Positions 188-55,702 of a DNA stretch of 64,000 bases are shown piece after piece. The translations under genes and the position numbers were made by a program. The notes below the pieces were generated by a model. The model had not been told where the DNA came from. It ran no database searches and worked only from the letters and a program-made list of their open reading frames with translations. Source of the stretch: a virus (Duplodnaviria > Caudoviricetes); IMG/VR virus record IMGVR_UViG_3300032332_001787, positions 96,001 to 160,000 of that record. One strand, 5' to 3'. Each line of letters starts with the position of its first letter. The stretch's first letter is position 1.

Positions 188-1105
188 ATGGCTAATGCAA
201 TTAGGCCCACGAAATTTAGTGAAATTACTGGTCAGTCAGAGGTTATAACAAGACTAGGAATTATCGTTGCAGGCTGTAAAAATTCAGCGGGCGTGATGCC
301 TCATGTTTTAATAGATGGCCCGCCGGGGCTTGGAAAGACCACCATTGCCAGTGCCATAGCAACAGAGATGGGAGTGAATCTATATACCATCAATGGAGCG
401 GGCATCCGCAGTATTAAAAATATTCTTCCGTATCTTACTGGCATGGAACCAAGGTCAGTATTATTTATTGATGAAATTCATAGACTTCCTAAAATTGTTG
501 AAGAATTTCTATATCCTGTCATGGAGGATTTTGTTTTAAATATCACTGTTAAAGGTGATGATGATAAGGATAAGCCAGAAACTATCGAACTGCCAATGTT
601 TACTGTGGTAGGGGCTACAACTAGCGGAGGTTCTCTAAGTCAACCTTTCTATGATAGATTTCAAATTAAAGAACATTTGTCTTTCTATAATGAAACTGAT
701 CTAGCTAAATTAGCCCGGTTAAACGCAACTAAGCTCGGACTAATGATAAATGATGATGATCTTTTAGAAATAGCCAAAAGAAGTAAAGGAACACCTAGAA
801 TCTTAAATGCTAGGCTTCAATGGTATAAGAACTGCGTTGCTTATTACCCAGACAAAGTAATGACTGTTGATGATATTTTTATTAATCAAGGTATTGATAA
901 AGATGGTCTAGATGTGTATGATAAGATGTATCTTAAGGTTTTAGCTAGTAGTAAGGGTGCTGCTTTGGGACTAAAGAGTATTTCTTCTTTGACTGGTATT
1001 GCTATTGAAACAATTGAGAATAGCATTGAACCTTATCTCGTCAGAAAAGGTTTTGTTGTAAGAACCCAAAAGGGAAGAGTTATAGGCTCATATAAAAATG
1101 AATGA
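188..1105 (+). CDS. ruvB: Holliday junction branch-migration AAA+ ATPase RuvB-like
   Basis: RP..F.E..GQ start, Walker A GPPGLGKTT, Walker B LFIDEIHRL, GATT sensor, KGTPRI, IEPYL..GF..RT.KGR; GGAGAT RBS. Confidence 0.92.
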   Translation: MANAIRPTKFSEITGQSEVITRLGIIVAGCKNSAGVMPHVLIDGPPGLGKTTIASAIATEMGVNLYTINGAGIRSIKNILPYLTGMEPRSVLFIDEIHRLPKIVEEFLYPVMEDFVLNITVKGDDDKDKPETIELPMFTVVGATTSGGSLSQPFYDRFQIKEHLSFYNETDLAKLARLNATKLGLMINDDDLLEIAKRSKGTPRILNARLQWYKNCVAYYPDKVMTVDDIFINQGIDKDGLDVYDKMYLKVLASSKGAALGLKSISSLTGIAIETIENSIEPYLVRKGFVVRTQKGRVIGSYKNE

Positions 1106-1430
1106 AATATCAATATCTATAAACTTACCAACTATGATTTTTTTCTCAATCACACTCCTAGCAATAGGGGTGTGTTTGTTTTTAATAGGCTATTTTTATG
1201 GTTTGTCCAAGATTGGTAATGGTGTATCTAATTTAGTTATAGATAGGCCGAAAAACTTTTTTGGCCATAATGTTACAAAAAATAACAAAATATCTATTGA
1301 CAATACTAAAGTTGTAACAGATATAAAAACTGATAATTTAGAGAAAAAATATGAATCTTTGGGCGAAATCAAAAATTCTGAAGATAATATATCTGAATCA
1401 ATCAATAAACTGAAAAATTTAAAGAGGTGA
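1098..1430 (+). CDS. hypothetical membrane protein
   Basis: N-terminal hydrophobic helix (FFSITLLAIGVCLFLIGYFYG); overlaps ruvB end. Confidence 0.7.
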   Translation: MNEISISINLPTMIFFSITLLAIGVCLFLIGYFYGLSKIGNGVSNLVIDRPKNFFGHNVTKNNKISIDNTKVVTDIKTDNLEKKYESLGEIKNSEDNISESINKLKNLKR

Positions 1431-1433
1431 TTT

Positions 1434-2438
1434 ATGGCTGGATGTGGCTTAGACGTTGGTACAAGCTATATAGTTTTATCAAGAGAAGAAAATAATAATT
1501 TAACATACAAAGATTTTAGAGATGCTTTTTATGTTATCAAGCCTACAACTCCAGTTGCCACCAAGATGATAGAAAAAGGATTAACTGGGAAAGTATTTAT
1601 TAAAGATGCTGACGGATCATTTATTTTGTTGGGTAAAGACGCTATAGAAAAAGCCATAGAAAGAAATGATACAGCAAAAAGACCTATGTATAAAGGGGTA
1701 GTATCTGCTAAGGAAAAGGATGCAAAAAGGGTGTTAGCTTTTATTCTTAAGGAAGTAGTCGGACAAGCTTCGGAGCCCGGTGAAAAGTTAGTCTTTTGTG
1801 TTCCCGCACAACCAGTAGATCAAGAAGATGAAGATTTTGATGTGGGATATCATGAAGATGTTGTAAAAACTATTCTTGCAGAATGTGGCTATAGTGCTAG
1901 AGCTATTAATGAAGCAGAAGCTCTTTGTTATGCTGAGTTAGAAAACGATGAGTACACAGGTATAGCAATTAGCTGTGGCGCAGGAATGACGAATGTTTGT
2001 GTGATGTTAAACGGCGAACCAACAGTAGTATTCAGCACAACCAAAAGCGGAGACTGGATTGATCGTATGAGTGCTGTGGCAACAGGAGAGCCTGACAGTG
2101 TTGTTCAAGCAGAGAAGGAGGGTGGTGGTTTTAAAATCGGAGAGCCTATAGAAAATCCAGTTTTAGGTGCGGTGTCAGCTTATTATGAAAGACTAATTGA
2201 TTATACGACAAAACAATTGTCTGCTGCATTAACTGGGCATAAATCTTTACCTAAATTCAAAGATGCTTTAACCATAGTTGTAGCCGGTGGAACATCACAA
2301 GCTAATGGATATATCGAAGAATTTACTAAAAAATTAGCAGATAATAATTTTCCGCTTAAGATTAAAGTAGTCAGACATGCTGCGGACCCCTTACATGCAG
2401 TTGCTAAAGGATGTTTGATTGCGGCAAAGGTATTATGA
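1434..2438 (+). CDS. actin-like ATPase (MreB/ParM/FtsA superfamily)
   Basis: Phosphate-1 GLDVGTS, connect-1 INEAEA, phosphate-2 SCGAGMT, adenosine VVAGGTS, connect-2 AVAKG; GAGG RBS. Confidence 0.85.
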   Translation: MAGCGLDVGTSYIVLSREENNNLTYKDFRDAFYVIKPTTPVATKMIEKGLTGKVFIKDADGSFILLGKDAIEKAIERNDTAKRPMYKGVVSAKEKDAKRVLAFILKEVVGQASEPGEKLVFCVPAQPVDQEDEDFDVGYHEDVVKTILAECGYSARAINEAEALCYAELENDEYTGIAISCGAGMTNVCVMLNGEPTVVFSTTKSGDWIDRMSAVATGEPDSVVQAEKEGGGFKIGEPIENPVLGAVSAYYERLIDYTTKQLSAALTGHKSLPKFKDALTIVVAGGTSQANGYIEEFTKKLADNNFPLKIKVVRHAADPLHAVAKGCLIAAKVL

Positions 2439-3224
2439 TCATACTTTAATTTGACCATCATCAAAATAAGTTGGAACAACATCCCATCCTTTACAAACCA
2501 TATCTACGCATGTCAAATTTGAATCTGGACCAAACCAAGTAGATGGCATTAAAACTTGTCCTTGTTTTTTAGATAAATAAGCTGACCACCAAGAAAAAGA
2601 AGAATTAGATAAAATAAAATTATTACACATAGATAATATCCATAGTATTTCTAAAGGTTCTGTTTTATCAATAAAAGTAGCATTTTGCAAAGTTATATTT
2701 GATCTGCACCAATCAATATCATCGCTACATATGATGTAAGAATCAGAATGAATAAGGTTTGCACAATAATTTATATACTCTATAGAAATAACTGGATGGA
2801 TATTTGGATAATATAAATAATCTCCACGTCTAACATGTATGGCTGTAGTGTTGTTGGACATTAGATGTTTATTGTTTTTGATAAAATCATCATTGGGTCC
2901 AAACATAGAGCATATTAATGGTCTATGGTGATTGAAATATTTATCTGTTTGACCATATCCAGTTAGAATTAAATTTTTATTTGGAAGAATTTTAATTGGA
3001 TTATAGTTATGGGATACCGAGATGTGAGTGTAGTCTGAAATATCAATATCTAAGTATTGAATATTTTTTAGAATACTATTTTTATATTCATGATAAACAC
3101 CAGGATTATCTTTATGAATAAAAAATTTTAAATTATTATCTATTGAGATAGCTGTACAGTATGCTATTTGAAATAGATTATTCCCCAATCTCCCAGCAAG
3201 ATTACATGTTATTTTATTTGGCAT
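2439..3224 (-). CDS. alpha-1,2-fucosyltransferase-like glycosyltransferase (GT11)
   Basis: GRLGNNLFQ, AIHVRRGDY, CSDD, ILSNSSFSWWSAYL motifs. Confidence 0.9.
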   Translation of the reverse strand: MPNKITCNLAGRLGNNLFQIAYCTAISIDNNLKFFIHKDNPGVYHEYKNSILKNIQYLDIDISDYTHISVSHNYNPIKILPNKNLILTGYGQTDKYFNHHRPLICSMFGPNDDFIKNNKHLMSNNTTAIHVRRGDYLYYPNIHPVISIEYINYCANLIHSDSYIICSDDIDWCRSNITLQNATFIDKTEPLEILWILSMCNNFILSNSSFSWWSAYLSKKQGQVLMPSTWFGPDSNLTCVDMVCKGWDVVPTYFDDGQIKV

Positions 3225-3921
3225 AGTCTGGCAATTCTTGGTAATAATTATTTATAAATTTTGGATCTAAAATAATTTTTCCTTCTTCTTTATTTACCAT
3301 ATTATCTATTTTGTTTAGTATACTATTGCCTGTGCCTAGTCCAGATATATGATAAGTATTCATACCCCACCTATATATCATTGTTGGTTTTAGTGTTGAT
3401 GTATAAATTTTAGCATTATTTTCAAAAGTTATTTCTACATCTTCATTAGATGTTTTATCGGGAAAAGTAATTCTATCTAAGTATTTTTTTGTATAAATAT
3501 TTCCATTATTTATATTATTACTAATTTGAATAAATTTATTATCAGTAAAGAAATAGTGTCCATTAGATCTATAAATCTCATATTCAGGATTGTTCAGTAT
3601 ATCATAGCACGCATTTTGTATAGCCCAAGGACATAATAAATCATCATCATCAAGCCTATAGATATTATCGTATTGACATTGTTTGTAACCAAATTCAAGT
3701 TTAGCTGATAATGACTTGAATCTATTTTTTGTATTTATGATTCTAACGTTACAAGAATAATTTATTGAGTACTCAACAGATACTGAATCATTAATTATTA
3801 CCATCTCACAATCATATTTTGATTCATTTTGAGATAAAAATGAGTAAATAGCTTCTTCAAGAAGACGGTATCTGTGATAAGTTAAAGTTAGTATTGAGAT
3901 CATAAAGTTATACTTATACAA
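3214..3921 (-). CDS. glycosyltransferase family 2 (GT-A)
   Basis: ISILTLTY.R...LEEAI.SFLSQ, VIIND, RLDDDD; start may be ATG at 3903. Confidence 0.85.
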   Translation of the reverse strand: MYKYNFMISILTLTYHRYRLLEEAIYSFLSQNESKYDCEMVIINDSVSVEYSINYSCNVRIINTKNRFKSLSAKLEFGYKQCQYDNIYRLDDDDLLCPWAIQNACYDILNNPEYEIYRSNGHYFFTDNKFIQISNNINNGNIYTKKYLDRITFPDKTSNEDVEITFENNAKIYTSTLKPTMIYRWGMNTYHISGLGTGNSILNKIDNMVNKEEGKIILDPKFINNYYQELPDYAK

Positions 3922-44874: not shown

Positions 44875-46329
44875 ATGATTTTATGTGACGCAGCAGCAGA
44901 AAGAGCTGTTCTTTCCGGAGTTTTTAATTATGGAGAGGATGCCTATTTGGATATTGCAGATATAGTTCAGGAATCGTCTTTTACTATTGATAGCAATTCT
45001 ATTATTTTCAAATGTCTCAAAACTATTTTCGACAGGGAACAAAGACCCAAGATTGATATTGCTACTATCTTTTCTGTTGCTGAAGAATTAAATTATGGTC
45101 ATATCTTAGCCAAAAAAGAAGAAGCTCAACACTTGAAAGCTATTATGGATTTTCCAGTTAGCCTTGAGAATGTTAGGAAATTTGCAGCTAAAATTAGAAA
45201 ACTAGAAATTGCAAGACTATTAAGAAAACAACTAGAACTAGCACAAGAAAAAATATTAGACGTTAATGGTACAGAACCCATAGGTAGTATTCTTGGTATC
45301 GCTGAAGAAACTATTTTTAATTTCACATCTTTATTAAACGATGGAGATAATAATCCAGTTACTATAGGACAAGATCTTGATACCTATATACATAATCTAG
45401 AACACAACAGAGTAGATCAAGTTGGTATCCCTACGGGATTTCCTGTATATGACCAAGCTATAGGTGGAGGTTTGAGAAAAGGAACAGTTAATGTTATTGG
45501 GGCTAGACCCAAAACTGGTAAAACGCTACTGTCAGATAATATGGGTAATAACATAGCCAAGCTAGGAATACCTGTACTTAATATGGATACAGAAATGAAT
45601 AAAGAAGACCATATTAATAGAATATTAGCCATGATGACAGAAATTGAAATTAATGCTATAGAAACAGGTAAGTTTGCAGAATCTCCAGACAAAAAGAATA
45701 AGCTAATAGCGGCGGCAACAGAATTAAAAAAGACTAAGTTATTTCACAAAAGCATTGCTGGTCAACCATTTGAAGATCAGCTAGCGATTATGAGAAGGTG
45801 GGTACTAAAAGAAGTTGGTCTTAATGATGATGGCACAGCTAAAGAATGTGTAATTTTTTATGACTATCTAAAACTAATGGATAGTGCTGGTATGAGTCAG
45901 GATCTTAAAGAATATCAGGTATTAGGATTTATGATGACTTCCTTACATAATTTTGCTACCAGATATAAGGTGCCTATTGTTGCATTTATACAGTTAAATA
46001 GAGATGGTATCACAAAAGAAAGCACAGACTCTGCCAGCGGATCTGATCGTATTATATGGTTATGTAGCAACTTTAGTATCTTCAAACGAAAGACCGCAGA
46101 AGAAATAGCTGAAGATGGACCAGATAATGGAAATCGTAAATTAGTACCATTAATCAGTAGACATGGAGGAGGATTAGACGACAATGACTACATAAATTGT
46201 TTTATGAAGGGTTGGTGTGCTAAGATTACTGAAGGTAGAACAAGATTAGAAGTCATGAACAACAGAGGCAACACATCAGATGGATTCGTCGTTGACAATG
46301 AAAATGCAGAAGAAATATCATTCCAATAA
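44875..46329 (+). CDS. dnaB: replicative DNA helicase
   Basis: D.AAERAVL, GIPTGF...D.AIGG, GARPKTGKT, EM, DYLKL, QLNR. Confidence 0.95.
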   Translation: MILCDAAAERAVLSGVFNYGEDAYLDIADIVQESSFTIDSNSIIFKCLKTIFDREQRPKIDIATIFSVAEELNYGHILAKKEEAQHLKAIMDFPVSLENVRKFAAKIRKLEIARLLRKQLELAQEKILDVNGTEPIGSILGIAEETIFNFTSLLNDGDNNPVTIGQDLDTYIHNLEHNRVDQVGIPTGFPVYDQAIGGGLRKGTVNVIGARPKTGKTLLSDNMGNNIAKLGIPVLNMDTEMNKEDHINRILAMMTEIEINAIETGKFAESPDKKNKLIAAATELKKTKLFHKSIAGQPFEDQLAIMRRWVLKEVGLNDDGTAKECVIFYDYLKLMDSAGMSQDLKEYQVLGFMMTSLHNFATRYKVPIVAFIQLNRDGITKESTDSASGSDRIIWLCSNFSIFKRKTAEEIAEDGPDNGNRKLVPLISRHGGGLDDNDYINCFMKGWCAKITEGRTRLEVMNNRGNTSDGFVVDNENAEEISFQ

Positions 46330-47464
46330 AAACGATCAGGCAAAACTAAAAATAGTCTGTGATGATATTTGTGATAATATCGATCTGCTATTGGAGAGTT
46401 TTGATATCGAATATAGGTCTAACGGCAAAATGGTGACAATGGCATGTCCCATTCATGGAGGAGATAATATCTCTGCTGTAAATCTATATCCAGAAGGAGA
46501 AACTTATAGGGGTAACTGGAAATGCAGAACTCATGGTTGTGATAAAGTTTTTAAAGCTTCTGTACTAGGTTTTGTTAGAGGAATACTATCTCATCGCAAA
46601 CACGGATGGATGAAAGATGGAGATACTACATGTTCTTTTAATGAGGCTTTAGACTTTGCTCTAAAATTTATCAAAAAAGATCTTAGTAATATCAAGATAT
46701 CTAAAAGCGAAAGAGATAAAAAAGCTTTTACTAATGTGATCAACTATGTTAGTAAAGCTAGTCAAGAAACCGCACAGACGGCTCAAATGCCAACGAGAGA
46801 ACAAGTTCGTAAATCACTAAATATCCCAGCTCAATATTATATAGATAGAGGTTACTCCGAAAGCATTCTAAATAAATATGATATTGGATTATGCGATAAG
46901 CCACAAAAAGAAATGTATAATAGAATCATTGTGCCGATATATAATAATGATTATACTCATATGATTGGATGTAGTGGCAGAAGCATTTTTGAAAAGTGTC
47001 AGAAGTGTTCTAGTTATCATGATCCAAAGAATATCTGTCCCTCAAATGAAAAAACATGGTTGTTTTCAAAGTGGAAACATAGCACCGACTTCAAAAGTCA
47101 GAACTCTTTGTATAACTTCTGGTTTGCTAAAGAGCATATAACCAAAAGCTCAACAGTGATTTTAGTAGAAAGTCCTGGTAATGTGTGGAGATTAGAAGAA
47201 AACAATATCCATAATAGTGTAGCAATATTTGGTTCTTCATTAAGCGACAGACAAAAAATTATCTTGGATTCGTCAGGAGCTATGACTATTATAGTTCTAA
47301 CCGACAATGATGAAGCTGGAAATAAAGCTGCTGAACAAATTAAAAATAAATGCCAAAATACATATCGGGTTTTTGTTCCCAAAATATCTAAACCAGATGT
47401 TGGAGAAATGAATTCTCAAGAAATAGAAGCAGAAATTAAACAATTTATAGGATCAATATCATGA
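46280..47464 (+). CDS. dnaG: DnaG-like DNA primase
   Basis: Zn finger CPIHGGDN...C.T..C, Y..RG, RII.PI, G.SGR, TOPRIM VES...DNDEAG. Confidence 0.85.
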   Translation: MDSSLTMKMQKKYHSNKNDQAKLKIVCDDICDNIDLLLESFDIEYRSNGKMVTMACPIHGGDNISAVNLYPEGETYRGNWKCRTHGCDKVFKASVLGFVRGILSHRKHGWMKDGDTTCSFNEALDFALKFIKKDLSNIKISKSERDKKAFTNVINYVSKASQETAQTAQMPTREQVRKSLNIPAQYYIDRGYSESILNKYDIGLCDKPQKEMYNRIIVPIYNNDYTHMIGCSGRSIFEKCQKCSSYHDPKNICPSNEKTWLFSKWKHSTDFKSQNSLYNFWFAKEHITKSSTVILVESPGNVWRLEENNIHNSVAIFGSSLSDRQKIILDSSGAMTIIVLTDNDEAGNKAAEQIKNKCQNTYRVFVPKISKPDVGEMNSQEIEAEIKQFIGSIS

Positions 47465-48090
47465 CAAGAATTATAGCTATAGCGGGCAGGAAACAATCTG
47501 GTAAAAGTACCTCTTGTGATTTTATTAAATCAACTATCTCTAAGATCAATCCCTTAGCATCCACCAAAATATATAGCTTTGCAGATCCTCTCAAGCAGGA
47601 TGTTTGTATAAATATACTGGGTTTAACATATGATCAATGTTATGGATCAGACATTCATAAGAATACTTTAACTAGTTTGAGATGGACAGATATGCCCGGA
47701 TATAATCCTAATATTGTGGCTAAAAACGAATACATGACAGCAAGAGAAGTGATGGAATTTGTAGGAACAAATATATTTAGAGTGATGAAAAATAGTGTCT
47801 GGGTTGATGCTACACTCAATAAAATTAAACAAGAAAATCTAGACTTGGCTATTGTTGCAGATTGTCGATTTCCTAATGAGGTTATGGCTATCAAAAATGC
47901 TGGTGGGTTTGTTATCAGACTAGATTATGATCCATTTAATTCTACTTCAGACAGTGAAATAGCTTTGGATCAACACCTATTTGATTGGAATCATTTTGAT
48001 CTAGTTATAAAGAATAGTACTATGACTATAGATCAAAAAAATGAACAAATATTAAATTTTCTATCAGACAAAGGAACACTACCATTATAA
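47461..48090 (+). CDS. deoxynucleoside monophosphate kinase
   Basis: IAIAGRKQSGKST, SFADPLK, T.REVM..VGT, DCRFPNE. Confidence 0.9.
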   Translation: MTRIIAIAGRKQSGKSTSCDFIKSTISKINPLASTKIYSFADPLKQDVCINILGLTYDQCYGSDIHKNTLTSLRWTDMPGYNPNIVAKNEYMTAREVMEFVGTNIFRVMKNSVWVDATLNKIKQENLDLAIVADCRFPNEVMAIKNAGGFVIRLDYDPFNSTSDSEIALDQHLFDWNHFDLVIKNSTMTIDQKNEQILNFLSDKGTLPL

Positions 48091-49127
48091 TAACATATTT
48101 TAGAAGCTCATCATACAATACTCACTCAATGTGTGAGCAACAATATTTTCTTGAATATGTTTTAGGCTATCGAGGTCCGTCAGGACAAAAAGCCGATAAA
48201 GGAACCATAGTTCATAAGGTATTAGAAATCCTTGCAGTTATTAAAAAAGCTCAACAGGATAGTATTGATACTATAGATGACGATGTTATTGGCAAATTAG
48301 AAGTATCTAATTACAGTTTAAATACAATAATCGAAAAAGTATATAAGCATTATACAGAAGCAAATTCTCATCACAAGTGGGCCTTAAAAGACTACAAAGA
48401 CTGTCATGCTTGGGTATATAAAGCTATTGAATTTAATAATGGCATGTTTGATCCTAGAAACAGAAATATTTTATGTCCAGAACAACACTTTGATTTTGAA
48501 ATAAAAAAACCGTGGGCTCAATATTCATATGACACTCCAGAAGGGAAACTAGAAGGATATCTTGCTTTAAAAGGCACTATTGACTTGATCACACTTGTTA
48601 ACGATACTACTATAGAGGTTATTGACTGGAAAACTGGCAAAAGACTAGACTGGGCAACTGGTCAGGAAAAGACTTTGGAAAAACTCCAGAATGACCCTCA
48701 GCTTAGAATATATTATTATGCTATTACTCATTTGTATCCTCATATTAAGAATGTAATTTTTTCAATATACTTTATCAATGACGGTGGTCCATTTTCAATA
48801 TGTTTTGACAAATCTGATTTAGCAAAAACAGAGGACATGTTGCGTCAAAAATTTGAAATAGTCAAAAAAACACAGAAACCAAGATTAAATAAAAGTTGGA
48901 TGTGTACTAAGCTATGTCATTTTGGTAAAACCACTTTTGAGAATACTCACATAGAAGCTCAAGAAGAATACAGAGAAAACCAGACTTGTTCAATTGGTTC
49001 CAAGATGACAAAATGTGAACAAATTAAGCATGATATAAGTCTTTATGGAATGAAGCAAGTTGTAGAAGAATATAAGAATCGCAATCACTCTTTTGGAAAA
49101 TATAAAGCTCCAGGAACTACAGAATGA
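48084..49127 (+). CDS. PD-(D/E)XK exonuclease (RecB/AddB/Cas4-like, Cys-ligated)
   Basis: GT.VH, KGTIDL, VIDWKTG, QL.IY, C-terminal C...C..C; probable ATT start at 48084 (AAAGGA 8 nt upstream); track start is 48129. Confidence 0.85.
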   Translation: MIITYFRSSSYNTHSMCEQQYFLEYVLGYRGPSGQKADKGTIVHKVLEILAVIKKAQQDSIDTIDDDVIGKLEVSNYSLNTIIEKVYKHYTEANSHHKWALKDYKDCHAWVYKAIEFNNGMFDPRNRNILCPEQHFDFEIKKPWAQYSYDTPEGKLEGYLALKGTIDLITLVNDTTIEVIDWKTGKRLDWATGQEKTLEKLQNDPQLRIYYYAITHLYPHIKNVIFSIYFINDGGPFSICFDKSDLAKTEDMLRQKFEIVKKTQKPRLNKSWMCTKLCHFGKTTFENTHIEAQEEYRENQTCSIGSKMTKCEQIKHDISLYGMKQVVEEYKNRNHSFGKYKAPGTTE

Positions 49128-50998
49128 GTTATTCAGTTTTACATTGTCATAGCATGATGTCTCTGTTGGACGGACTATCCAAGTTTGATGATCTTGCATC
49201 AAGATGTAAGGAAATAGGAGCAACAGCGTGTGCTATAACAGATCATGGCAATATTGCGGGTGCGGTTAAATTTTATCAGTCAATGAAAAAAGCTGGCATT
49301 AAACCCATCCTTGGTTGTGAATTGTATATATGCGAACAAAGTCCTACCATCAAAGAAGTTAGCAATAAAAAACTTAGCCATTTTTTGGTTTTGGCTAAAA
49401 ACCTCAAAGGCTGGAAAAATTTAATCCAGCTAGTTTCCTTGTCCAACAGCCCAGACTTTTATTATCACAAGCCACGCCTCGACCTAGAGACTCTGGCGAG
49501 ATTCTGTGACGGCAACCTCATAGGAATATGCGGCCACCTTGGATCACTATTGGCCGATAAGATAATGGATGACAATAATGAATTAATTAATGATCATATT
49601 AATATAGGAATAGAAACTGCGGAAAAGCTCAAATCAATATTTGGTAATGATAATATATTTCTGGAAGCACAATTAATAGATAAAGAAAATCTACCTATTC
49701 AAGAGTTTTTAACTAATGCAATTAGAGAGATTGGTCAAAGGACTAATATTAAGATCATAGCTACTCCTGATGCTCATTATGCCAGAAAAGAGGATGCTGT
49801 TGATCAAAGAATTTTACTATGCAATAATCTTAAAATGACATTACCAGATATTAGTCGTAAAATTAGCAATAACGAAGATATCCCTATGGGCTGTTTCTTT
49901 TTGTCCGACAATTATCATATTCCTTCATTTGAAGAACTACAAAACATTCATCCCCAAGAAGAATTAGATAATACCAATTATGTCGCAGACCTTATAGAAG
50001 ACTACAACATTCTTGCTAAACCCAGATTGCCACCCTTTGCTTGTCCAGCAGGATATGATCCAGACACATATCTTAGACAGTTATGTAGAGATGGGTGGAA
50101 ACAAAAAATTGCAAAAAAAATACCAGAAGAAGAACAGAATAAATATGTTGAAAGAATCAAATATGAACTAGAAATCCTACAGGGTGCAGGGTTGTCAAGT
50201 TATTTCTTGATTGTGCAAGATATCGTGAACTATGTTAGGAACCAAGGGTGGCTTCCGGGTCCGGGCAGAGGAAGTGCGGCGGGATGTTTAGTGTCGTACT
50301 TAATTAGTATTACTAGTATTGATCCTATAAAATATGATCTTTTATTTGAGAGATTTTATAATCAAGGCCGACAAGAAAAAGGACACGTTTCATTACCAGA
50401 TATTGATGTTGACGTTCCAATTAATAAAAGAGAAGAAGTGATCTCATACATTAAAAATAAATATGGTGCGGACAAGGTTTCTCAAATGGTGACATTTAAC
50501 ACTATGAAAGGCCGTGGAGCTATTAAGGACGTATTAAGAGTGTATGGGAATATATCATTTGATGAGATGAATAATATCACCAAAAGTATTCCGGATGAAG
50601 CAAAAATTGCCGACGAGCTTCAAGAAATGAAAGAAGAAACAGGAGAAGCTTCTATTATTAGGTGGTCTTTAGAAAATAATGTAGAAAAACTCAAAGAATG
50701 GTGCTATATTGACGAAAATAACCAATTACAAGGACCACTTGCCAAAAGATTTGAACAGGCTATAAGATTAGAAGGTACGAAAACCAATCAGTCAAAACAT
50801 GCCGCTGGCATAGCTATAAGTGCTGAGCCACTACAAGAAATTTGCCCCATGGTTTATGACTCAAAAAATAATCAACTAATTGCTGGTATGGAAATGCAAG
50901 ACCTAGAAGCTTTGGGGGTAATTAAATTTGATATTCTTGGTATCGCTATGTTAGATAAAATTATGACTATTCAAGATATACTAGAAAAAGGAGAATAA
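49124..50998 (+). CDS. dnaE: DNA polymerase III alpha, N-terminal part (PHP + palm)
   Basis: LHCHS..S.LDG, TDHG, GCE, DAHY, GRGSAAG.LV.Y, LFERF, PDIDVD, HAAG, KFDILG; ends TAA soon after. Confidence 0.95.
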   Translation: MSYSVLHCHSMMSLLDGLSKFDDLASRCKEIGATACAITDHGNIAGAVKFYQSMKKAGIKPILGCELYICEQSPTIKEVSNKKLSHFLVLAKNLKGWKNLIQLVSLSNSPDFYYHKPRLDLETLARFCDGNLIGICGHLGSLLADKIMDDNNELINDHINIGIETAEKLKSIFGNDNIFLEAQLIDKENLPIQEFLTNAIREIGQRTNIKIIATPDAHYARKEDAVDQRILLCNNLKMTLPDISRKISNNEDIPMGCFFLSDNYHIPSFEELQNIHPQEELDNTNYVADLIEDYNILAKPRLPPFACPAGYDPDTYLRQLCRDGWKQKIAKKIPEEEQNKYVERIKYELEILQGAGLSSYFLIVQDIVNYVRNQGWLPGPGRGSAAGCLVSYLISITSIDPIKYDLLFERFYNQGRQEKGHVSLPDIDVDVPINKREEVISYIKNKYGADKVSQMVTFNTMKGRGAIKDVLRVYGNISFDEMNNITKSIPDEAKIADELQEMKEETGEASIIRWSLENNVEKLKEWCYIDENNQLQGPLAKRFEQAIRLEGTKTNQSKHAAGIAISAEPLQEICPMVYDSKNNQLIAGMEMQDLEALGVIKFDILGIAMLDKIMTIQDILEKGE

Positions 50999-50999
50999 A

Positions 51000-51203
51000 A
51001 TGATAAAATTTATGGATTTGGCGGCCGGGTTGAAGTTCACAGCTAGTCTTAATGGAGGCCCTATTACTGAATATATTAAAATTCAAGAAGAACGAATAAG
51101 CTGCTGTTCGGTACTAAATGCTCAGACAACAGGAGCTAATGGTCAAAAAGTACAGTTTCTTCCATTAGCTGAAGTAGAAGAAGTTAAAGAGGAAAACAAA
51201 TAG
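51000..51203 (+). CDS. small hypothetical protein
   Basis: AGGAGA RBS; between dnaE halves. Confidence 0.7.
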   Translation: MIKFMDLAAGLKFTASLNGGPITEYIKIQEERISCCSVLNAQTTGANGQKVQFLPLAEVEEVKEENK

Positions 51204-51205
51204 TA

Positions 51206-51892
51206 ATGATTAATTATAACAAAATTTGTGTTTTTGATTTTGAAACTGACGGATCGGACCCAAAAGTCTGTAGTCCTGTTCAAATTGCTGCAGTTATTAT
51301 AGATCCTATTAAGTTAGAGATAGTTCCAAATTCTGAATTTAATATTTTCTTTAAACCAGAAGTTTTAGCTAATGACGAAAACTATAATTATACAACAGAC
51401 ATATTGGATTTTCATGCTAAGGTTAGAGGATCTTCCAAAGAAGATATCCTGAAAGAGTGGAAAGCTTATCCTGCACAGGAACAATCTTGGAGACTATTCA
51501 TAGACTACCTGTCTATGCATCACACAAGATCAAGCAAGAAAAGCCAGTTTAGTGCTCCGATAGCTGCTGGTTACAATATTAATAGGTTCGATCTTACTAT
51601 CATTGATAGATTAAGTCGAAAATATGGCAATGTAAATAAGGAAGATAGGTCTGATGTATTTTTCCCTAGAGATGTCGTTGATATTATGAATCTTATTTTT
51701 TATTGGTTTGAACATAATAATGATTTAAAAAACTACACTTTAGATTCTATCAGAGATTATCTTGGTATTAGTAAAGAAGGTGCTCATGATGCTCTAAAAG
51801 ACGTAAAAGATTGTGCAGAAATACTAACTAGGTTTATGAGACTGCATAGAAACTTGGGACAGAAAGTTAAATTCAAAGGTTCTTTTTGCTGA
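51206..51892 (+). CDS. DEDDh 3'-5' exonuclease (DnaQ/epsilon-like)
   Basis: VFDFETDG (ExoI), AGYN...FD (ExoII), HDAL.D (ExoIII). Confidence 0.92.
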   Translation: MINYNKICVFDFETDGSDPKVCSPVQIAAVIIDPIKLEIVPNSEFNIFFKPEVLANDENYNYTTDILDFHAKVRGSSKEDILKEWKAYPAQEQSWRLFIDYLSMHHTRSSKKSQFSAPIAAGYNINRFDLTIIDRLSRKYGNVNKEDRSDVFFPRDVVDIMNLIFYWFEHNNDLKNYTLDSIRDYLGISKEGAHDALKDVKDCAEILTRFMRLHRNLGQKVKFKGSFC

Positions 51893-51899
51893 AGATAAA

Positions 51900-53528
51900 A
51901 TGACTAAAAAATTTCAATATAGTTGTGGTTGTTCTTTTGATATTATCGGTGAAGATAATCATAAAAACCTACAAATAAAATTTGAACCAAAAATTGAAGA
52001 TATTAACTTAGACTGCCAAAAAACTTGGGATCTTATTTCTGATGGAAATACCAAAGGATGCTTCCAATTGGAGTCTAGACTCGGCAAGTCTATGGCAAAA
52101 AAGTTAAAACCCCAGAACATAGAGCAGTTATCTGCTTTAATTAGCGTTTTACGGCCAGGATGTTTGGAAGCGGTTAGAGATGGAAAAACTGTTTCTAATC
52201 ATTATATAGATAAGAAAAATGGTTTGGAGTCCGTAGATTATTATCATCCTTGTTTAGAGCCTGTTCTCAAAACAACATATGGAGAAATGATCTATCAAGA
52301 GCAAGCAATGGAAATTGCAAAAACCGTTGCTGGTTTTGATCTTCAAGAAGCAGACATGTTAAGAAAAGCTATTGGAAAAAAGAAACCAGAAGAAATGGCC
52401 AAGATTAAGATTAAATTTCTAGCCGGATCTGCAAAGAGCGGCATGGTTTCTACACAACAAGCAGAGGAAATTTTTAGTTGGATTGAAAAATCACAAAGAT
52501 ATTCATTTAATAAATCTCATGCAGTATCTTATGCTGTAAATTGTTATTTGTCCGCATATACAAAAGCACATTTCCCAAAAATATTCTTTGCTGCTTATTT
52601 GAGATTTGCCAAAGACAAAATTGATCCTAAAGCAGAAATAAAAGAGTTAGTTCAAAATTCCAATGAAATGGATGTTGCTGTATCTATACCAGATATTAGA
52701 AATCTTAATAAGTTATTTATTCTCAAAGATGATAAAATATACTTTGGATTAACAGATATAAAAGGATTTGGACAATCTGTTTTTGATAAATTGATATCTA
52801 CTATAGATAGTAAAAAAATTAATTTAGATAGCATGACTTGGCCTGAAATTTTACTACATGTGTTAATAAACCTTAATTCAACATCCGCTAAGGCTTTGAT
52901 ACAGGGTGGTGCTTTATCGTTTATTGGCAAAAGCAGAACAAGTATGTTATTTGAACTTAGTCTTATTTCTGAATTAACAAAAAAAGAATCTGACCATATT
53001 ATTAGTAATATACATCATCACCGTACCATCGGAGATAGCTTACATGATTTATATCATAATGGAAAGTCTAATAAGAATAGAAAAGCTATTATATTAGGAT
53101 TAATTAACAATTATAATAAACCACCATATTCCTTGGAAGACAATCCAGAATGGATATCGGATACTGAAGACTCGGTTTTGGGATGTAGTATTACTTGTTC
53201 TAAAGTAGATATGTATGATATTACTATGACAAATACAACGTGCAAAGACTTTAAAACAACTTTGAATAAAGATAATATTATTTTGTGTGCAGAAATCGAG
53301 AATATCGGCGTCACAAAAACTAAAACTGGGAAAACTCCAGGTTTAGAGATGGCATTTGTTACATTAAGCGATGGAACAGGAGTATTAGATTCCGTTGTAT
53401 TCTTTCCAGAAGCATACAAAACGTATCGCAACACACTATTTCCTGGAAATGTTATTATTGTTAAGGGGAATAAAGCAAAAAATGGCGAATCTTTGATCGT
53501 AGAAAAGACTTATATTCCAAAGACTTGA
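51900..53528 (+). CDS. dnaE: DNA polymerase III alpha, C-terminal part (thumb/fingers, HhH, OB fold)
   Basis: G.T.GCFQLES, RPG, TYG.MIYQEQ.M, AD.LRKAIGKK, YSFNKSHA.SYA, FGL.DIKG.G, MAFVTLSD. Confidence 0.95.
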   Translation: MTKKFQYSCGCSFDIIGEDNHKNLQIKFEPKIEDINLDCQKTWDLISDGNTKGCFQLESRLGKSMAKKLKPQNIEQLSALISVLRPGCLEAVRDGKTVSNHYIDKKNGLESVDYYHPCLEPVLKTTYGEMIYQEQAMEIAKTVAGFDLQEADMLRKAIGKKKPEEMAKIKIKFLAGSAKSGMVSTQQAEEIFSWIEKSQRYSFNKSHAVSYAVNCYLSAYTKAHFPKIFFAAYLRFAKDKIDPKAEIKELVQNSNEMDVAVSIPDIRNLNKLFILKDDKIYFGLTDIKGFGQSVFDKLISTIDSKKINLDSMTWPEILLHVLINLNSTSAKALIQGGALSFIGKSRTSMLFELSLISELTKKESDHIISNIHHHRTIGDSLHDLYHNGKSNKNRKAIILGLINNYNKPPYSLEDNPEWISDTEDSVLGCSITCSKVDMYDITMTNTTCKDFKTTLNKDNIILCAEIENIGVTKTKTGKTPGLEMAFVTLSDGTGVLDSVVFFPEAYKTYRNTLFPGNVIIVKGNKAKNGESLIVEKTYIPKT

Positions 53529-53552
53529 CGCAATCGCACTGGTTTCTATAAT
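53525..53552 (+). promoter_or_regulatory. sigma70-like promoter for ssb
   Basis: TTGACG (53525-30), 16 nt, TATAAT (53547-52). Confidence 0.7.
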
Positions 53553-53594
53553 AGTTCAGTGTTTGGTTTTGGTTTTTTAAAAAAGGAGAGATTG

Positions 53595-53975
53595 ATGAAT
53601 ATCAATATTTTACGCGGTAATTTAGCTAGAGATCCCGAACTTAGAGTTGTGAACACCGGCGGTAAGCAAACCTCTGTAGTGAATTTTACAGTTGCTGTTT
53701 CTAGGGAATACACAAAGTCAAATGGCGAAAAGGACAAAGTTACCACGTTTGTGCCATGTGAAGCATGGGATAGTGGTGCAGAGATTATAGGGCAGTCTTT
53801 TAAGAAGGGCGATTTAGTTTTAGTAGAAGGCTCTCTTAGAAATGACTCATGGGAGAAGGATGGAGTAAAACATAATTCTCTTAAGATTAGGGTTAATAAT
53901 TTTTCAAAGATCACAAAGCTTTCTAAGAAGAAGGAACAAATAGAATCTGCTGAAGAAGAAGTTGTTAACTTCTGA
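53595..53975 (+). CDS. ssb: single-stranded DNA-binding protein
   Basis: AAGGAG RBS before ATG 53595; MN...L.GNL.RDPELR, NFTVAV.R, KG..V.VEG.L....W; acidic tail. Confidence 0.95.
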   Translation: MNINILRGNLARDPELRVVNTGGKQTSVVNFTVAVSREYTKSNGEKDKVTTFVPCEAWDSGAEIIGQSFKKGDLVLVEGSLRNDSWEKDGVKHNSLKIRVNNFSKITKLSKKKEQIESAEEEVVNF

Positions 53976-54002
53976 TCTGATTATCTCATCAACAGGAACA
54001 AA

Positions 54003-54035
54003 TAAGGGGGATGAAATACTCCCCCTATATTTTTA
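54003..54035 (+). terminator. stem-loop after ssb (terminator or translational hairpin)
   Basis: AGGGGGA-tgaaatac-TCCCCCT followed by ATATTTTT. Confidence 0.65.
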
Positions 54036-55702
54036 TGTCTAAGAAAAAACTCAAAATTTTAATGTGTTCTGAAGCCAGTTTTCTTAGCTCTGGTTTTGGT
54101 ACCTATGCTAAAGAAATTCTCAAAAGACTACATGCTACAAATAAATATGAGATAGCAGAGTTTGCTTCATATGGCAAAGTTAATGATCCAAAAGATACTG
54201 ATGTTTCTTGGAGATATTATGCTAATGCTGTAGATGATAAAGATCCAAGACATCAAGAATACAATAGTTCTGCAGAAAATCAATTTGGTAGATGGAGATT
54301 CGAGCGGGTTTTATTAGACTTCAAGCCCGACATTGTATTTGATGTTAGAGACTATTGGATGAATTCATATCAGCAATTTTCTCCTCTTAGACCATTTTAT
54401 CATTGGGTATTGATGCCCACGGTAGACTCAGCTCCTCAGCAAGAAGAATGGATTGATACCTTTTTACATGCTGATGCTATTTTTACTTATTCTGATTTTG
54501 GTAGAGACACTTTATTAGAACAAAGTAATAGAAAAATTAAATACATAGATACTGCTTCTCCAGGAGTGGATCTATCTACATTTAAAATAATAGAGAATAA
54601 ATCATCAGTAAAAAAAGCTCTAGGACTAGATGAGCAGTCTTTTATTGTTGGTTCTATTATGAGAAATCAAAAAAGAAAACTCATTCCTGAGCTATTTGTA
54701 TCTATAAAAAAATTAATCGAAAAATTTCAGAAGGAAAACAATCCTTTAGGAGAAAAAGTATTTTTATACTTACATACTAGCTATCCTGATGCTGGATGGG
54801 ACTTACCCCAACTTCTAAAAGAATACAAGATTGGTAATAGGGTATTATTTTCCTATAGCTGTAAAAACTGCAATTATTTTCAGCCATGCCTATATCAGCA
54901 TCCAGTGTCTTATTGTCCCAAATGTGGACAAAAATCTTTTAGTATGCCCAATGTTAGTTCCGGGGTTTCATCTAATATTTTATCAGTCATTATCAATAGT
55001 TTTGATATATATGTACAATATGCTATATGTGAAGGATTTGGAATGCCCCAAGTTGAAGCTGCCGCTTGTGGTGTCCCAATAGCTTCTACAGATTATAGCG
55101 CAATGAGTGACGTGGTAAGAAAATTAAATGGCTATCCAGTGAGGATTAAGCAATCTTTTAAAGAACTAGAGACCAAAGCGATCAGAGTCTACCCAGACAA
55201 CGACCACCTTGCTGAAATTTTATATAACTATACAAAATTACCAGAGTTTTTGGTAAATCAAAAAAGATTTGAAACTCGTAAATTAGCAGAAAAATATTAT
55301 AACTGGGATAATATTGCTAAAAAATGGGAGAATTACTTTGACCAAGTGAAATTAACGGGACTACAAGGACAATGGCAAGAAAGCTTAAATGTTCTTCAGT
55401 CTATCAAAGAATTGCCCAAACTTAATAGTAATTATGATATATTAACCCAGTTGGTGTCAAAACACTTACCAAACCATCAGATAGCGTCATCAATTATACT
55501 ACTCAACTTAATTAAAGATCTGGATAATGGTTTTGCTATCAATGGAATGCATACTGAGCAGTATACTATGTCTAAAGCTATTGATATTCTTAATAATATG
55601 ATATCTAATAATAATTTAGCACAAAATGCTAAAGATAATCATGAGAATCTAAAACATGAAGATTTTATTGAATACGCAGATATGAAAGCTAAATTACAAT
55701 GA
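54011..55702 (+). CDS. glycosyltransferase family 4 with internal zinc ribbon
   Basis: SGFGTYA, RNQKRK, EX7E EGFGMPQVE, YNW..IA; insert CKNC..C....CPKC; start 54011 or 54035. Confidence 0.9.
   Translation: MKYSPYIFMSKKKLKILMCSEASFLSSGFGTYAKEILKRLHATNKYEIAEFASYGKVNDPKDTDVSWRYYANAVDDKDPRHQEYNSSAENQFGRWRFERVLLDFKPDIVFDVRDYWMNSYQQFSPLRPFYHWVLMPTVDSAPQQEEWIDTFLHADAIFTYSDFGRDTLLEQSNRKIKYIDTASPGVDLSTFKIIENKSSVKKALGLDEQSFIVGSIMRNQKRKLIPELFVSIKKLIEKFQKENNPLGEKVFLYLHTSYPDAGWDLPQLLKEYKIGNRVLFSYSCKNCNYFQPCLYQHPVSYCPKCGQKSFSMPNVSSGVSSNILSVIINSFDIYVQYAICEGFGMPQVEAAACGVPIASTDYSAMSDVVRKLNGYPVRIKQSFKELETKAIRVYPDNDHLAEILYNYTKLPEFLVNQKRFETRKLAEKYYNWDNIAKKWENYFDQVKLTGLQGQWQESLNVLQSIKELPKLNSNYDILTQLVSKHLPNHQIASSIILLNLIKDLDNGFAINGMHTEQYTMSKAIDILNNMISNNNLAQNAKDNHENLKHEDFIEYADMKAKLQ

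Follow-up and report, generated by a model that had tools for sequence, protein, structure and literature searches.

We examined a 64,000-nucleotide (nt) window, bases 96001-160000 of the 230,097-bp IMG/VR record IMGVR_UViG_3300032332_001787, which comes from an uncultured freshwater phage and is rated complete by CheckV. Within the window lies a block of four consecutive genes in which a DNA polymerase III alpha subunit (DnaE) is encoded in two pieces. The first gene (dnaE-N, 624 amino acids, aa) encodes the polymerase's N-terminal portion and the last (dnaE-C, 542 aa) the C-terminal part, and between them lie an open reading frame (ORF) of 67 aa and a gene for a DEDDh exonuclease (Table 1). 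These ORFs and their order are as claimed by the original prediction, which had been made from the sequence alone, and its coordinates were confirmed.

The spacers between the four genes are 1, 2 and 7 nt. The Shine-Dalgarno sequence AAAGGAG of the 67-aa ORF is embedded in the last codons of dnaE-N (K-G-E), and this ending of the N half, K/x-G-E/V, is conserved among relatives. No terminator-like site was found on the + strand inside the four-gene block, and promoter-like matches there were at chance level.

Annotation of dnaE-N with Pfam revealed a PHP domain (PF02811, E 8.7e-39) and DNA_pol3_alpha (PF07733, E 3.8e-76), with positions 2-260 of the 260 of the latter profile covered. In dnaE-C, DNA_pol3_finger (PF17657, E 4e-46) was detected from profile position 19 on, followed by HHH_6 (PF14579, E 1e-7) and an OB fold (PF01336, E 3e-6). 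PHROG 405, a family of full-length phage DnaE, was matched at positions 42-615 by the N half and at 612-1071 by the C half; since the two together span it, they make up one complete alpha subunit from which nothing was lost. PHP, palm with the Asp triad, and fingers with helix-hairpin-helix (HhH) and OB domains, by which a DnaE-type polymerase is recognised, are thus all present, and they are carried by two polypeptides, with a stop codon closing the first and a new start at 51900 opening the second.

All nine PHP ligand positions, as placed by alignment with the alpha subunit of Thermus aquaticus (Taq), are occupied (H7, H9, D16, H41, E66, H86, H138, D216 and H218), H138 replacing the Cys of Taq, and they are invariant in 34 relatives. 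The catalytic D426, D428 and D603 are likewise invariant in these 34 and all lie in the N half, in agreement with the earlier claim that dnaE-N has an intact PHP site and all three catalytic Asp. The N half also keeps the first fingers helix (L-D-K-I-M-T-I-Q-D-I-L) and ends 21 residues past D603 of the KFDILG motif. It aligns with residues 9-565 of E. coli alpha and 7-627 of Taq alpha, and dnaE-C aligns with E. coli alpha from 586 to 853 and beyond, its residue 32/33 corresponding to E. coli 586 and Taq 646. The break accordingly sits at E. coli residues ~566-585 (Taq 628-645), in a short helix-loop after the strand with the third catalytic Asp, at the palm/fingers boundary.

As had also been read from the sequence, the C half resumes at the FQLES block after a novel extension with C-G-C; the extension is ~31 aa long and its C9-G10-C11 is invariant. 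Besides the FQLES block, the C half holds YSFNKSH and the nucleotide-binding R-K-A-I-G-K-K-K, which aligns with L-R-R-A-M-G-K-K-K of E. coli, and these motifs are invariant (34-35 sequences). The catalytic Asp in the N half and the finger motifs in the C half being both invariant argues for one active site made from two chains. It is probable, as far as can be judged from the sequences, that the two products assemble physically, without a covalent bond, into a two-chain DnaE with a shared active site.

Table 1. Features of the split dnaE locus and of its surroundings (window positions)
Feature	Position	Strand	Remarks
DnaB helicase	44875-46329		upstream of dnaE-N, replication module (Pfam, PHROG)
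Toprim primase	46280-47464		upstream of dnaE-N, replication module
Deoxynucleoside monophosphate (dNMP) kinase	47461-48090		upstream of dnaE-N, replication module
PD-(D/E)XK nuclease	48129-49127	+	stop overlaps dnaE-N start (ATGA)
dnaE-N	49124-50998	+	624 aa; PHP, palm, thumb; stop codon 50996-50998
Coupling junction AAAGGAGAATAAAATG	50988..51002	+	dnaE-N end / small-ORF start, 1-nt spacer from stop to start
Small protein S1	51000-51203	+	67 aa; no known family
DEDDh 3'-5' exonuclease	51206-51892	+	228 aa
N-terminal head of dnaE-C	51900..51992	+	~31 aa, CxC motif
dnaE-C	51900-53528	+	542 aa; fingers, HhH (beta-binding), OB fold
ssb	53559-53975	+	138 aa, directly downstream of dnaE-C, same replication module
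Two glycosyltransferases	first, 54011-55702	+	downstream of ssb

The window stems from a metagenome assembly, so that the break could in principle have arisen in assembly or sequencing, or the gene could be a pseudogene in decay. Scanning IMG/VR with the N half gave 60 loci with 59-98% identity, and another scan, for which distant N halves were aligned, added 80; after duplicates were removed, 115 N halves (41-98% identity) from many metagenomes were left. All 115 stop 22-46 residues (mostly 24-29) past KFDILG. The C half was found downstream on the same strand in 102 of them, at a distance of 642-5631 nt (median 888 nt). An exhaustive HMMER search covered 1.84 billion cluster representatives. 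Of the 151 N-type sequences examined, which are the query and its 150 best matches (38-69% identical), 89 end 18-43 aa past a KFDILG-type motif; the motif pattern missed most of the remaining ones, although in length most of them, too, correspond to an N half. A collection of 5.8 billion proteins contained more than 3000 relatives with the size of a C half, on contigs of up to ~230 kb. A DNA-level search of GenBank phages gave no match, and the closest deposited phage proteins are ~35% identical. One relative (L120:5986-7869) has an in-frame TAA near the 5' end of its N half, directly after the PHP H-x-H and followed by GTG, which may be due to a sequencing error, a shortened start or damage to this copy. 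With 115 non-redundant contigs alike, clean start/stop junctions, strong selection and a single-copy locus, an artefact or pseudogene is effectively refuted.

In comparison with a 98%-identical locus (L002), at which synonymous sites have diverged (proportion of synonymous differences, pS, 0.21-0.50), the ratio of nonsynonymous to synonymous substitution (dN/dS) was 0.038 for the N half, 0.020 for the exonuclease, 0.024 for the C half and 0.23 for the small ORF, which gave 0.03-0.32 in six other close pairs. All four genes are functional and under strong purifying selection. A single match each to PF07733, PF17657 and the RNase_T family was found in the whole genome, and PolA and PolB had no match in it. 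The split DnaE is the sole recognisable polymerase of this phage. As the only polymerase in a complete genome, with low dN/dS and invariant catalytic residues, the enzyme must work.

The original prediction had named several observations that could overturn it, and none of them did when tested: the split recurs in relatives, which excludes an assembly artefact; an intact dnaE elsewhere is excluded by the single PF07733 and PF17657 matches; and decay is excluded by the dN/dS of 0.02-0.04 for N, exonuclease and C together with the invariant catalytic residues. Its proposal of a non-covalent heterodimeric C-family polymerase is thereby supported.

Neither a beta-clamp nor a clamp loader had a recognisable match in the 230-kb genome, and the split polymerase presumably uses the clamp of the host, or none. 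As parts of the host replisome would be used anyway, and as the seemingly intact PHP metal site could act as an autonomous nuclease, one may ask whether there is a joint polymerase at all: the N product could be a PHP exonuclease or a crippled polymerase, and the C product a DNA- or clamp-binding factor, with host Pol III replicating the phage. We regard this as very unlikely, since the catalytic Asp of N and the finger motifs of C are both invariant, the halves are co-linear and in one operon in 102/102 loci, and the phage has its own DnaB, primase, SSB and nucleotide-metabolism genes, which is typical of self-replicating phages.

Contiguous and split inteins are rife in this dnaE family, and the C-G-C at the start of the dnaE-C head, with its hydrophobic/acidic pattern, vaguely resembles intein block A. 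A split intein, degenerate or atypical, or some other ligation chemistry in the N tail and the C head might thus rejoin the halves covalently; in a weaker form, a splicing-dead intein stump would only hold the halves together. Clean ends without intein motifs had been claimed for both halves, and this held: no Pfam match to a Hint/intein domain was found in either half. Relative to Taq and to unsplit relatives with ~50% identity (P0013, P0027, P0033 and P0081), the surplus at the junction is ~25 residues, all of them at the C head, and the N half has no extension, its end aligning inside unsplit DnaE sequence. Roughly 125 residues or more are required for a minimal Hint fold, about five times this surplus, so that ~25 residues leave far too little room for an intein. 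No intein-N (~90-125 aa, starting with Cys/Ser) was seen where the N half ends, and in the head no conserved intein-C ending, that is, no terminal His-Asn, with no conserved Cys/Ser/Thr nucleophile as the residue after it. When the head was compared by hhalign with the intein-N and intein-C segments of the family itself, the probability was 0.3%, in a test of low power (32 columns). Moreover, the CxC head is absent in 22/102 family members. Covalent rejoining of the halves is for these reasons highly improbable.

A true intein in the same family served as positive control. In locus L055 (IMGVR_UViG_3300009149_004827, 838-3919), dnaE-N is additionally split, between GPGRG and SAAGC, by an intein. 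The intein-N fragment of ~87-88 aa starts with C-F-L-P-D-T and, even though it is only 88 aa long, gives weak Hint matches, and the intein-C ends with V-H-N before Ser. Between the intein halves are two free-standing ORFs, one of 90 aa and one of 155 aa that is PD-(D/E)XK/TnsA/Vsr-like. The intein-free break, with a small ORF and the exonuclease, is also kept further on, and the L055 polymerase would, to judge from its genes, come from three of them, with one junction spliced and the other not. Other inteins were seen in further members. P0009 (L154:8001-12191) has a contiguous intein after R-P-G-C in the fingers, P0011 (L155:1730-6407) and P0033 (L153:682-5381) have split inteins after R-Y-S/Q-F-N-K/A, in each case with the last DnaE piece preceded by a free-standing ORF of ~300 aa, and many N halves of 950-1040 aa contain a 340-400-aa intein between GPGRG and S.

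Joining could also take place at the level of RNA or translation, through a group I or group II intron, trans-splicing or ribosomal bypass, and would then yield one alpha. Introns often interrupt phage genes, dnaE of Bacillus jumbo phages included; in Bacillus phage vB_BceM_WH1 (L062, gp235-237), dnaE is in three pieces with 400-700-nt gaps, which are possibly introns. In our window, searching Rfam with positions 48000-54500 and E up to 1 identified no intron family (Rfam covers described intron classes only) and returned only a chance match to U6atac. The sequencing runs in which the locus was found were of DNA only, and one of them may be the source sample. The gap is filled completely by two ORFs under purifying selection, and for each half a start codon of its own follows directly on the stop before it. 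Among the relatives the gap ORFs are conserved, and the gap varies in length and content (642-5631 nt); in L022 and L138, 3.6-4.4 kb of unrelated genes separate the halves. Such variable, unrelated cargo makes RNA or protein splicing hard to reconcile with these loci. An intron, one of the outcomes of concern to the original prediction, is highly improbable, and joining at the RNA or translation level in general has hardly any likelihood left.

The gap cargo was annotated in several loci. It comprises an FkbM methyltransferase, a DUF1559/N-methyl prepilin-like protein and ThyX in L022:8734-12380, a uracil-DNA glycosylase in L088:8136-8720, a TylF-type methyltransferase in L084:8649-9425, and ~4.4 kb of unknown genes in L138:9084-13518. 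DUF1559 is typical of Planctomycetota and gives a hint to the host of the L022 phage.

The exonuclease gene lies between the polymerase halves in 102/102 loci that hold both. Its product belongs to RNase_T/DEDDh in Pfam (PF00929, E 1e-12) and to phrog_192, annotated as 'DNA polymerase exonuclease subunit'. The Exo I, II and III motifs (D-x-E, D, H-x4-D) are present, and D11, E13, D129, H194 and D199 are invariant. The AlphaFold2 (AF2) model has a predicted local distance difference test score (pLDDT) of 86, with the C-terminal tail below 50, and its fold matches are RNase T, Exo I, TREX-like proteins, DnaQ and the exonuclease of PolC (E ~1e-8, TM 0.5-0.68). By sequence and predicted fold, it appears to be generically DEDDh. 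The tail carries the pattern K-[VI]-K-F-[KE]-x-[SA]-F (residues 220-228, window 51866-51892), conserved down to 33% identity. By analogy with the epsilon tail, this may be the signature of a docking peptide, for which the polymerase or the host sliding clamp is a candidate partner.

The 67-aa protein, here referred to as S1, is confidently predicted to fold as an all-beta SH3/Tudor-like barrel (pLDDT 91.5) and has an invariant signature F..Y..CC (F13, Y25, C35 and C36). Pfam and PHROG gave no match, and no PDB sequence was matched even at E 10. In fold comparison, the matches by Foldseek and VIA-align were confined to generic barrels of the SH3, Tudor, PWWP and EF-P-like types (Z ~5), and matches in the Atlas were to unnamed viral clusters only. 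S1 was found in 64/102 split loci. With its hidden Markov model (HMM), nothing was found even at E 10 in 6/6 loci that are unsplit at this position, and split loci gave 1e-16 to 1e-27; the association of S1 with the split is suggestive, the unsplit side of it consisting of two clades. The same position is taken by non-homologous small ORFs in other loci, S2 (72-83 aa, with a Y-Q-V-H-C motif) in 19 and S3 (~92-97 aa) in roughly ten, neither of which has a Pfam family. The longer motif of S2 reads G-R-Y...S-I-C...Y-Q-V-H-C...K-F (for example L076:7705-7926 and L074:7824-8075), and S3 is acidic and probably helical (for example L082:7898-8176 and L087:7910-8188); the carriers of S2 and S3 are more distant members of the family. 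We also considered S1 as an intein stump; hhalign against intein-N gave 8%, which is not significant, and this was rejected. In complex prediction, S1 as partner of N 300-624, C 1-300 and the exonuclease scored 0.00, which we do not use as evidence either way.

The first ~31 residues of dnaE-C, the head, have no counterpart in solved DnaE structures. Their motif is F-x-[YF]-x-C-G-C-x-F, followed by a conserved C39, and C9, G10, C11 and F13 are invariant in the aligned relatives; in the wider family it takes the form F-x-Y/F-x-C-x-C-x-F, followed by a second hydrophobic strand. The CxC head is present in 80/102 split loci, including some without any small ORF, and is retained even in loci where the exonuclease is just 33-45% identical. 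We considered a four-Cys zinc site to which the small protein would give its CC and the head its CxC, and a strict link was rejected by co-occurrence: CxC heads occur without a small ORF in L073, L086 and L138, others stand beside the unrelated S2 or S3, and six S1 loci have no CxC.

In the non-covalent two-chain DnaE that we propose, the N chain (PHP, palm and thumb) would supply the three catalytic aspartates and the first fingers helix, and the C chain would supply the remaining fingers, the basic motif that binds the incoming nucleotide, the HhH domain for duplex and clamp binding, and the OB fold. The active site would be composite, and polymerisation by either chain alone would be impossible. 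Carried on one message with coupled starts, the four genes would give matched amounts of products made side by side. The first fingers helix of N, which packs into the finger domain in single-chain DnaE, would tether the chains together with the palm-fingers interface. Proofreading would be done by the exonuclease, which would dock, in the manner of epsilon on alpha, by way of its conserved C-terminal peptide, predicted to be disordered. The C head's CxC hairpin, the SH3-like small protein, or both, may help to make up for the lost covalent link.

Some observations weigh against this proposal. The nearest solved DnaE structures are all single-chain, and six relatives with ~45-50% identity and the synteny of the window have an intact junction, so that the split is not required in this polymerase lineage. 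The CxC head is missing from 22/102 split loci and 4/102 have no small ORF at all; therefore, neither is a universal staple. The core of 3-4 subunits with the exonuclease and the 67-aa protein, which had been suggested as a possibility, is unproven, and what speaks for it in the sequence is gene linkage. An obligate four-part core, in which gene order mirrors assembly order, the exonuclease is sandwiched, and S1 (or S2/S3) and the CxC hairpin act as staples, is in our view rather unlikely. If it were true, the fingers/clamp-binding module would be a cassette exchangeable between phages, and no C-family replicase before this one would have had its active site divided over two chains.

The six unsplit relatives share with the window the order of dNMP kinase, PD-(D/E)XK nuclease, dnaE, SSB and glycosyltransferases. 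In FastTree and IQ-TREE phylogenies, they form two supported clades nested in the split forms, which implies at least 3 changes, but a tree with all unsplit forms together was not rejected by the approximately unbiased (AU) test (p = 0.155), and therefore neither re-fusion nor a single split can be claimed. A reading with which the trees are compatible is that the split is ancestral in this large family and the few unsplit members are re-fusions. At unsplit loci the exonuclease gene is found immediately upstream of dnaE in L145 and L155, and downstream, past ssb and a glycosyltransferase, in L144 and L154. Upstream of dnaE, L144:3331-4050 and L145:3985-5031 have an ORF whose translation shows an HNH-like C-terminal block, and in L155:58-1032 a LAGLIDADG_3 ORF (Pfam) lies just before the exonuclease gene that precedes dnaE. 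Two human-gut contigs (L148 and L149) appear unsplit, with N and C matches in one frame and 18-31 nt apart, and dnaE is annotated as a single gene in Geobacillus phage GBK1 and Bacillus phage PK-1.

The window as a whole is AT-rich (G+C ~33%), with nearly all genes on the + strand, and the synteny of its replication module (Table 1) is retained also in the relatives with unsplit dnaE. A strong sigma-70-like site at 53525-53552 (TTGACG, 16 nt, TATAAT; 11 of 12) overlaps the end of dnaE-C and lies upstream of ssb. After ssb, a GC-rich hairpin with a T-run was seen at 54005-54026, overlapping the first codons of the following glycosyltransferase gene. Given the site before it and the hairpin after it, ssb may be transcribed as a unit of its own.

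All bacteria replicate with DnaE-type polymerases, and these have been studied, as far as we found, only as single or intein-spliced chains. Here, aquatic phages that form a very large group with global distribution apparently replicate with an alpha subunit cut between the catalytic Asp and the fingers, which indicates a natural permissive split site in the C-family core and raises the question of how a composite active site holds together and how proofreading couples to it. Databases already contain thousands of examples, annotated piecewise; in annotation pipelines, each of the two pieces receives the label 'DNA polymerase III subunit alpha' and may be marked as a pseudogene or fragment. 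For engineering, a two-piece DnaE is available here from nature. The family also allows three ways of surviving gene invasion to be compared within one family, namely contiguous inteins, split inteins with homing endonucleases, and the intein-free split.

Split DnaE is textbook knowledge only with split inteins, as in the cyanobacterial dnaE-n/dnaE-c. Among the known systems, single-chain DnaE (E. coli 2HNH/5FKU, T. aquaticus 2HPI, M. tuberculosis 5LEW, and phages GBK1 and PK-1) has the same domain order, Asp triad, PHP ligands and finger motifs; the phage studied here differs in having two polypeptides, ~25 extra residues in the CxC head, and two genes in the gap. 'Fractured' DnaE loci, with adjacent halves and another gene between them, were described by Dassa et al. 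2009 (PMC2677866). These and the cyanobacterial loci are alike in having a replicative DnaE in two genes, and true examples occur in this phage family (L055, L153 and L155). The break described here, on the other hand, is at another site and neither has intein halves nor could accommodate them; two chains are expected as the outcome, and the gap holds the exonuclease and a small barrel protein instead of a homing endonuclease.

The E. coli Pol III core (alpha-epsilon-theta) and PolC likewise have a DEDDh exonuclease tightly linked to a C-family polymerase. Unlike epsilon, the phage exonuclease is generically DEDDh and lacks a long epsilon-like C-terminal segment. A small accessory protein next to the exonuclease recalls theta, although it is an all-beta barrel here and theta is helical.

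We found no literature on a DnaE that is full-length, free of inteins and made as two chains with the gene of the proofreader between their genes, in searches that left subscription journals mostly outside. A 'minimal' split Pol III alpha has been described in group 2.2 jumbo phages, where two stand-alone proteins are predicted (Iyer et al. 2021, PMC7824862). It consists of a nucleotidyltransferase and a template-binding module without PHP, HhH and OB, is encoded by distant genes and exists beside a PolB replicase, whereas our phage has, as its only polymerase, a full-length DnaE with a single cut, the halves of which share one operon. Further cases are found among deposited genomes. Rossellomorea phage phiT1 (PV767480; gp20/gp19/gp18) has two alpha coding sequences (CDSs) without intein motifs, broken in the same loop and with a 49-aa ORF in the gap, but it lacks the CxC head, and its gap does not contain an exonuclease. 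Bacillus phage vB_BauM_KLEB27-3 (L151, OM634661; gp166/gp165/gp164) also has two alpha CDSs without intein motifs, with the break ~40 residues further on, after G-L-F-Q-I-E, and an HNH endonuclease gene in the gap. No papers discussing the split dnaE of phiT1 or KLEB27-3 were found.

Precedents of the same kind are non-covalently split family-B polymerases. According to the account in PMC2988022 of Petrov, Ratnayaka & Karam 2010, gp43A and gp43B of Aeromonas phages 25 and 44RR co-purify and are active as a complex, and DNAP-N and DNAP-C of PhiKZ form a 1:1 complex, which is shown to be active as well (PMC13648687). As in the present case, an essential replicase is cut in its catalytic core with no intein or intron. 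These enzymes are of another family and fold (B, not C) and are broken at an unrelated position. Their genes either lie apart or have a homing endonuclease or an untranslated spacer in the gap, whereas here the gap holds the proofreader gene. The non-covalently split phage replicase is a known kind, and what is new here is its probable occurrence in family C.

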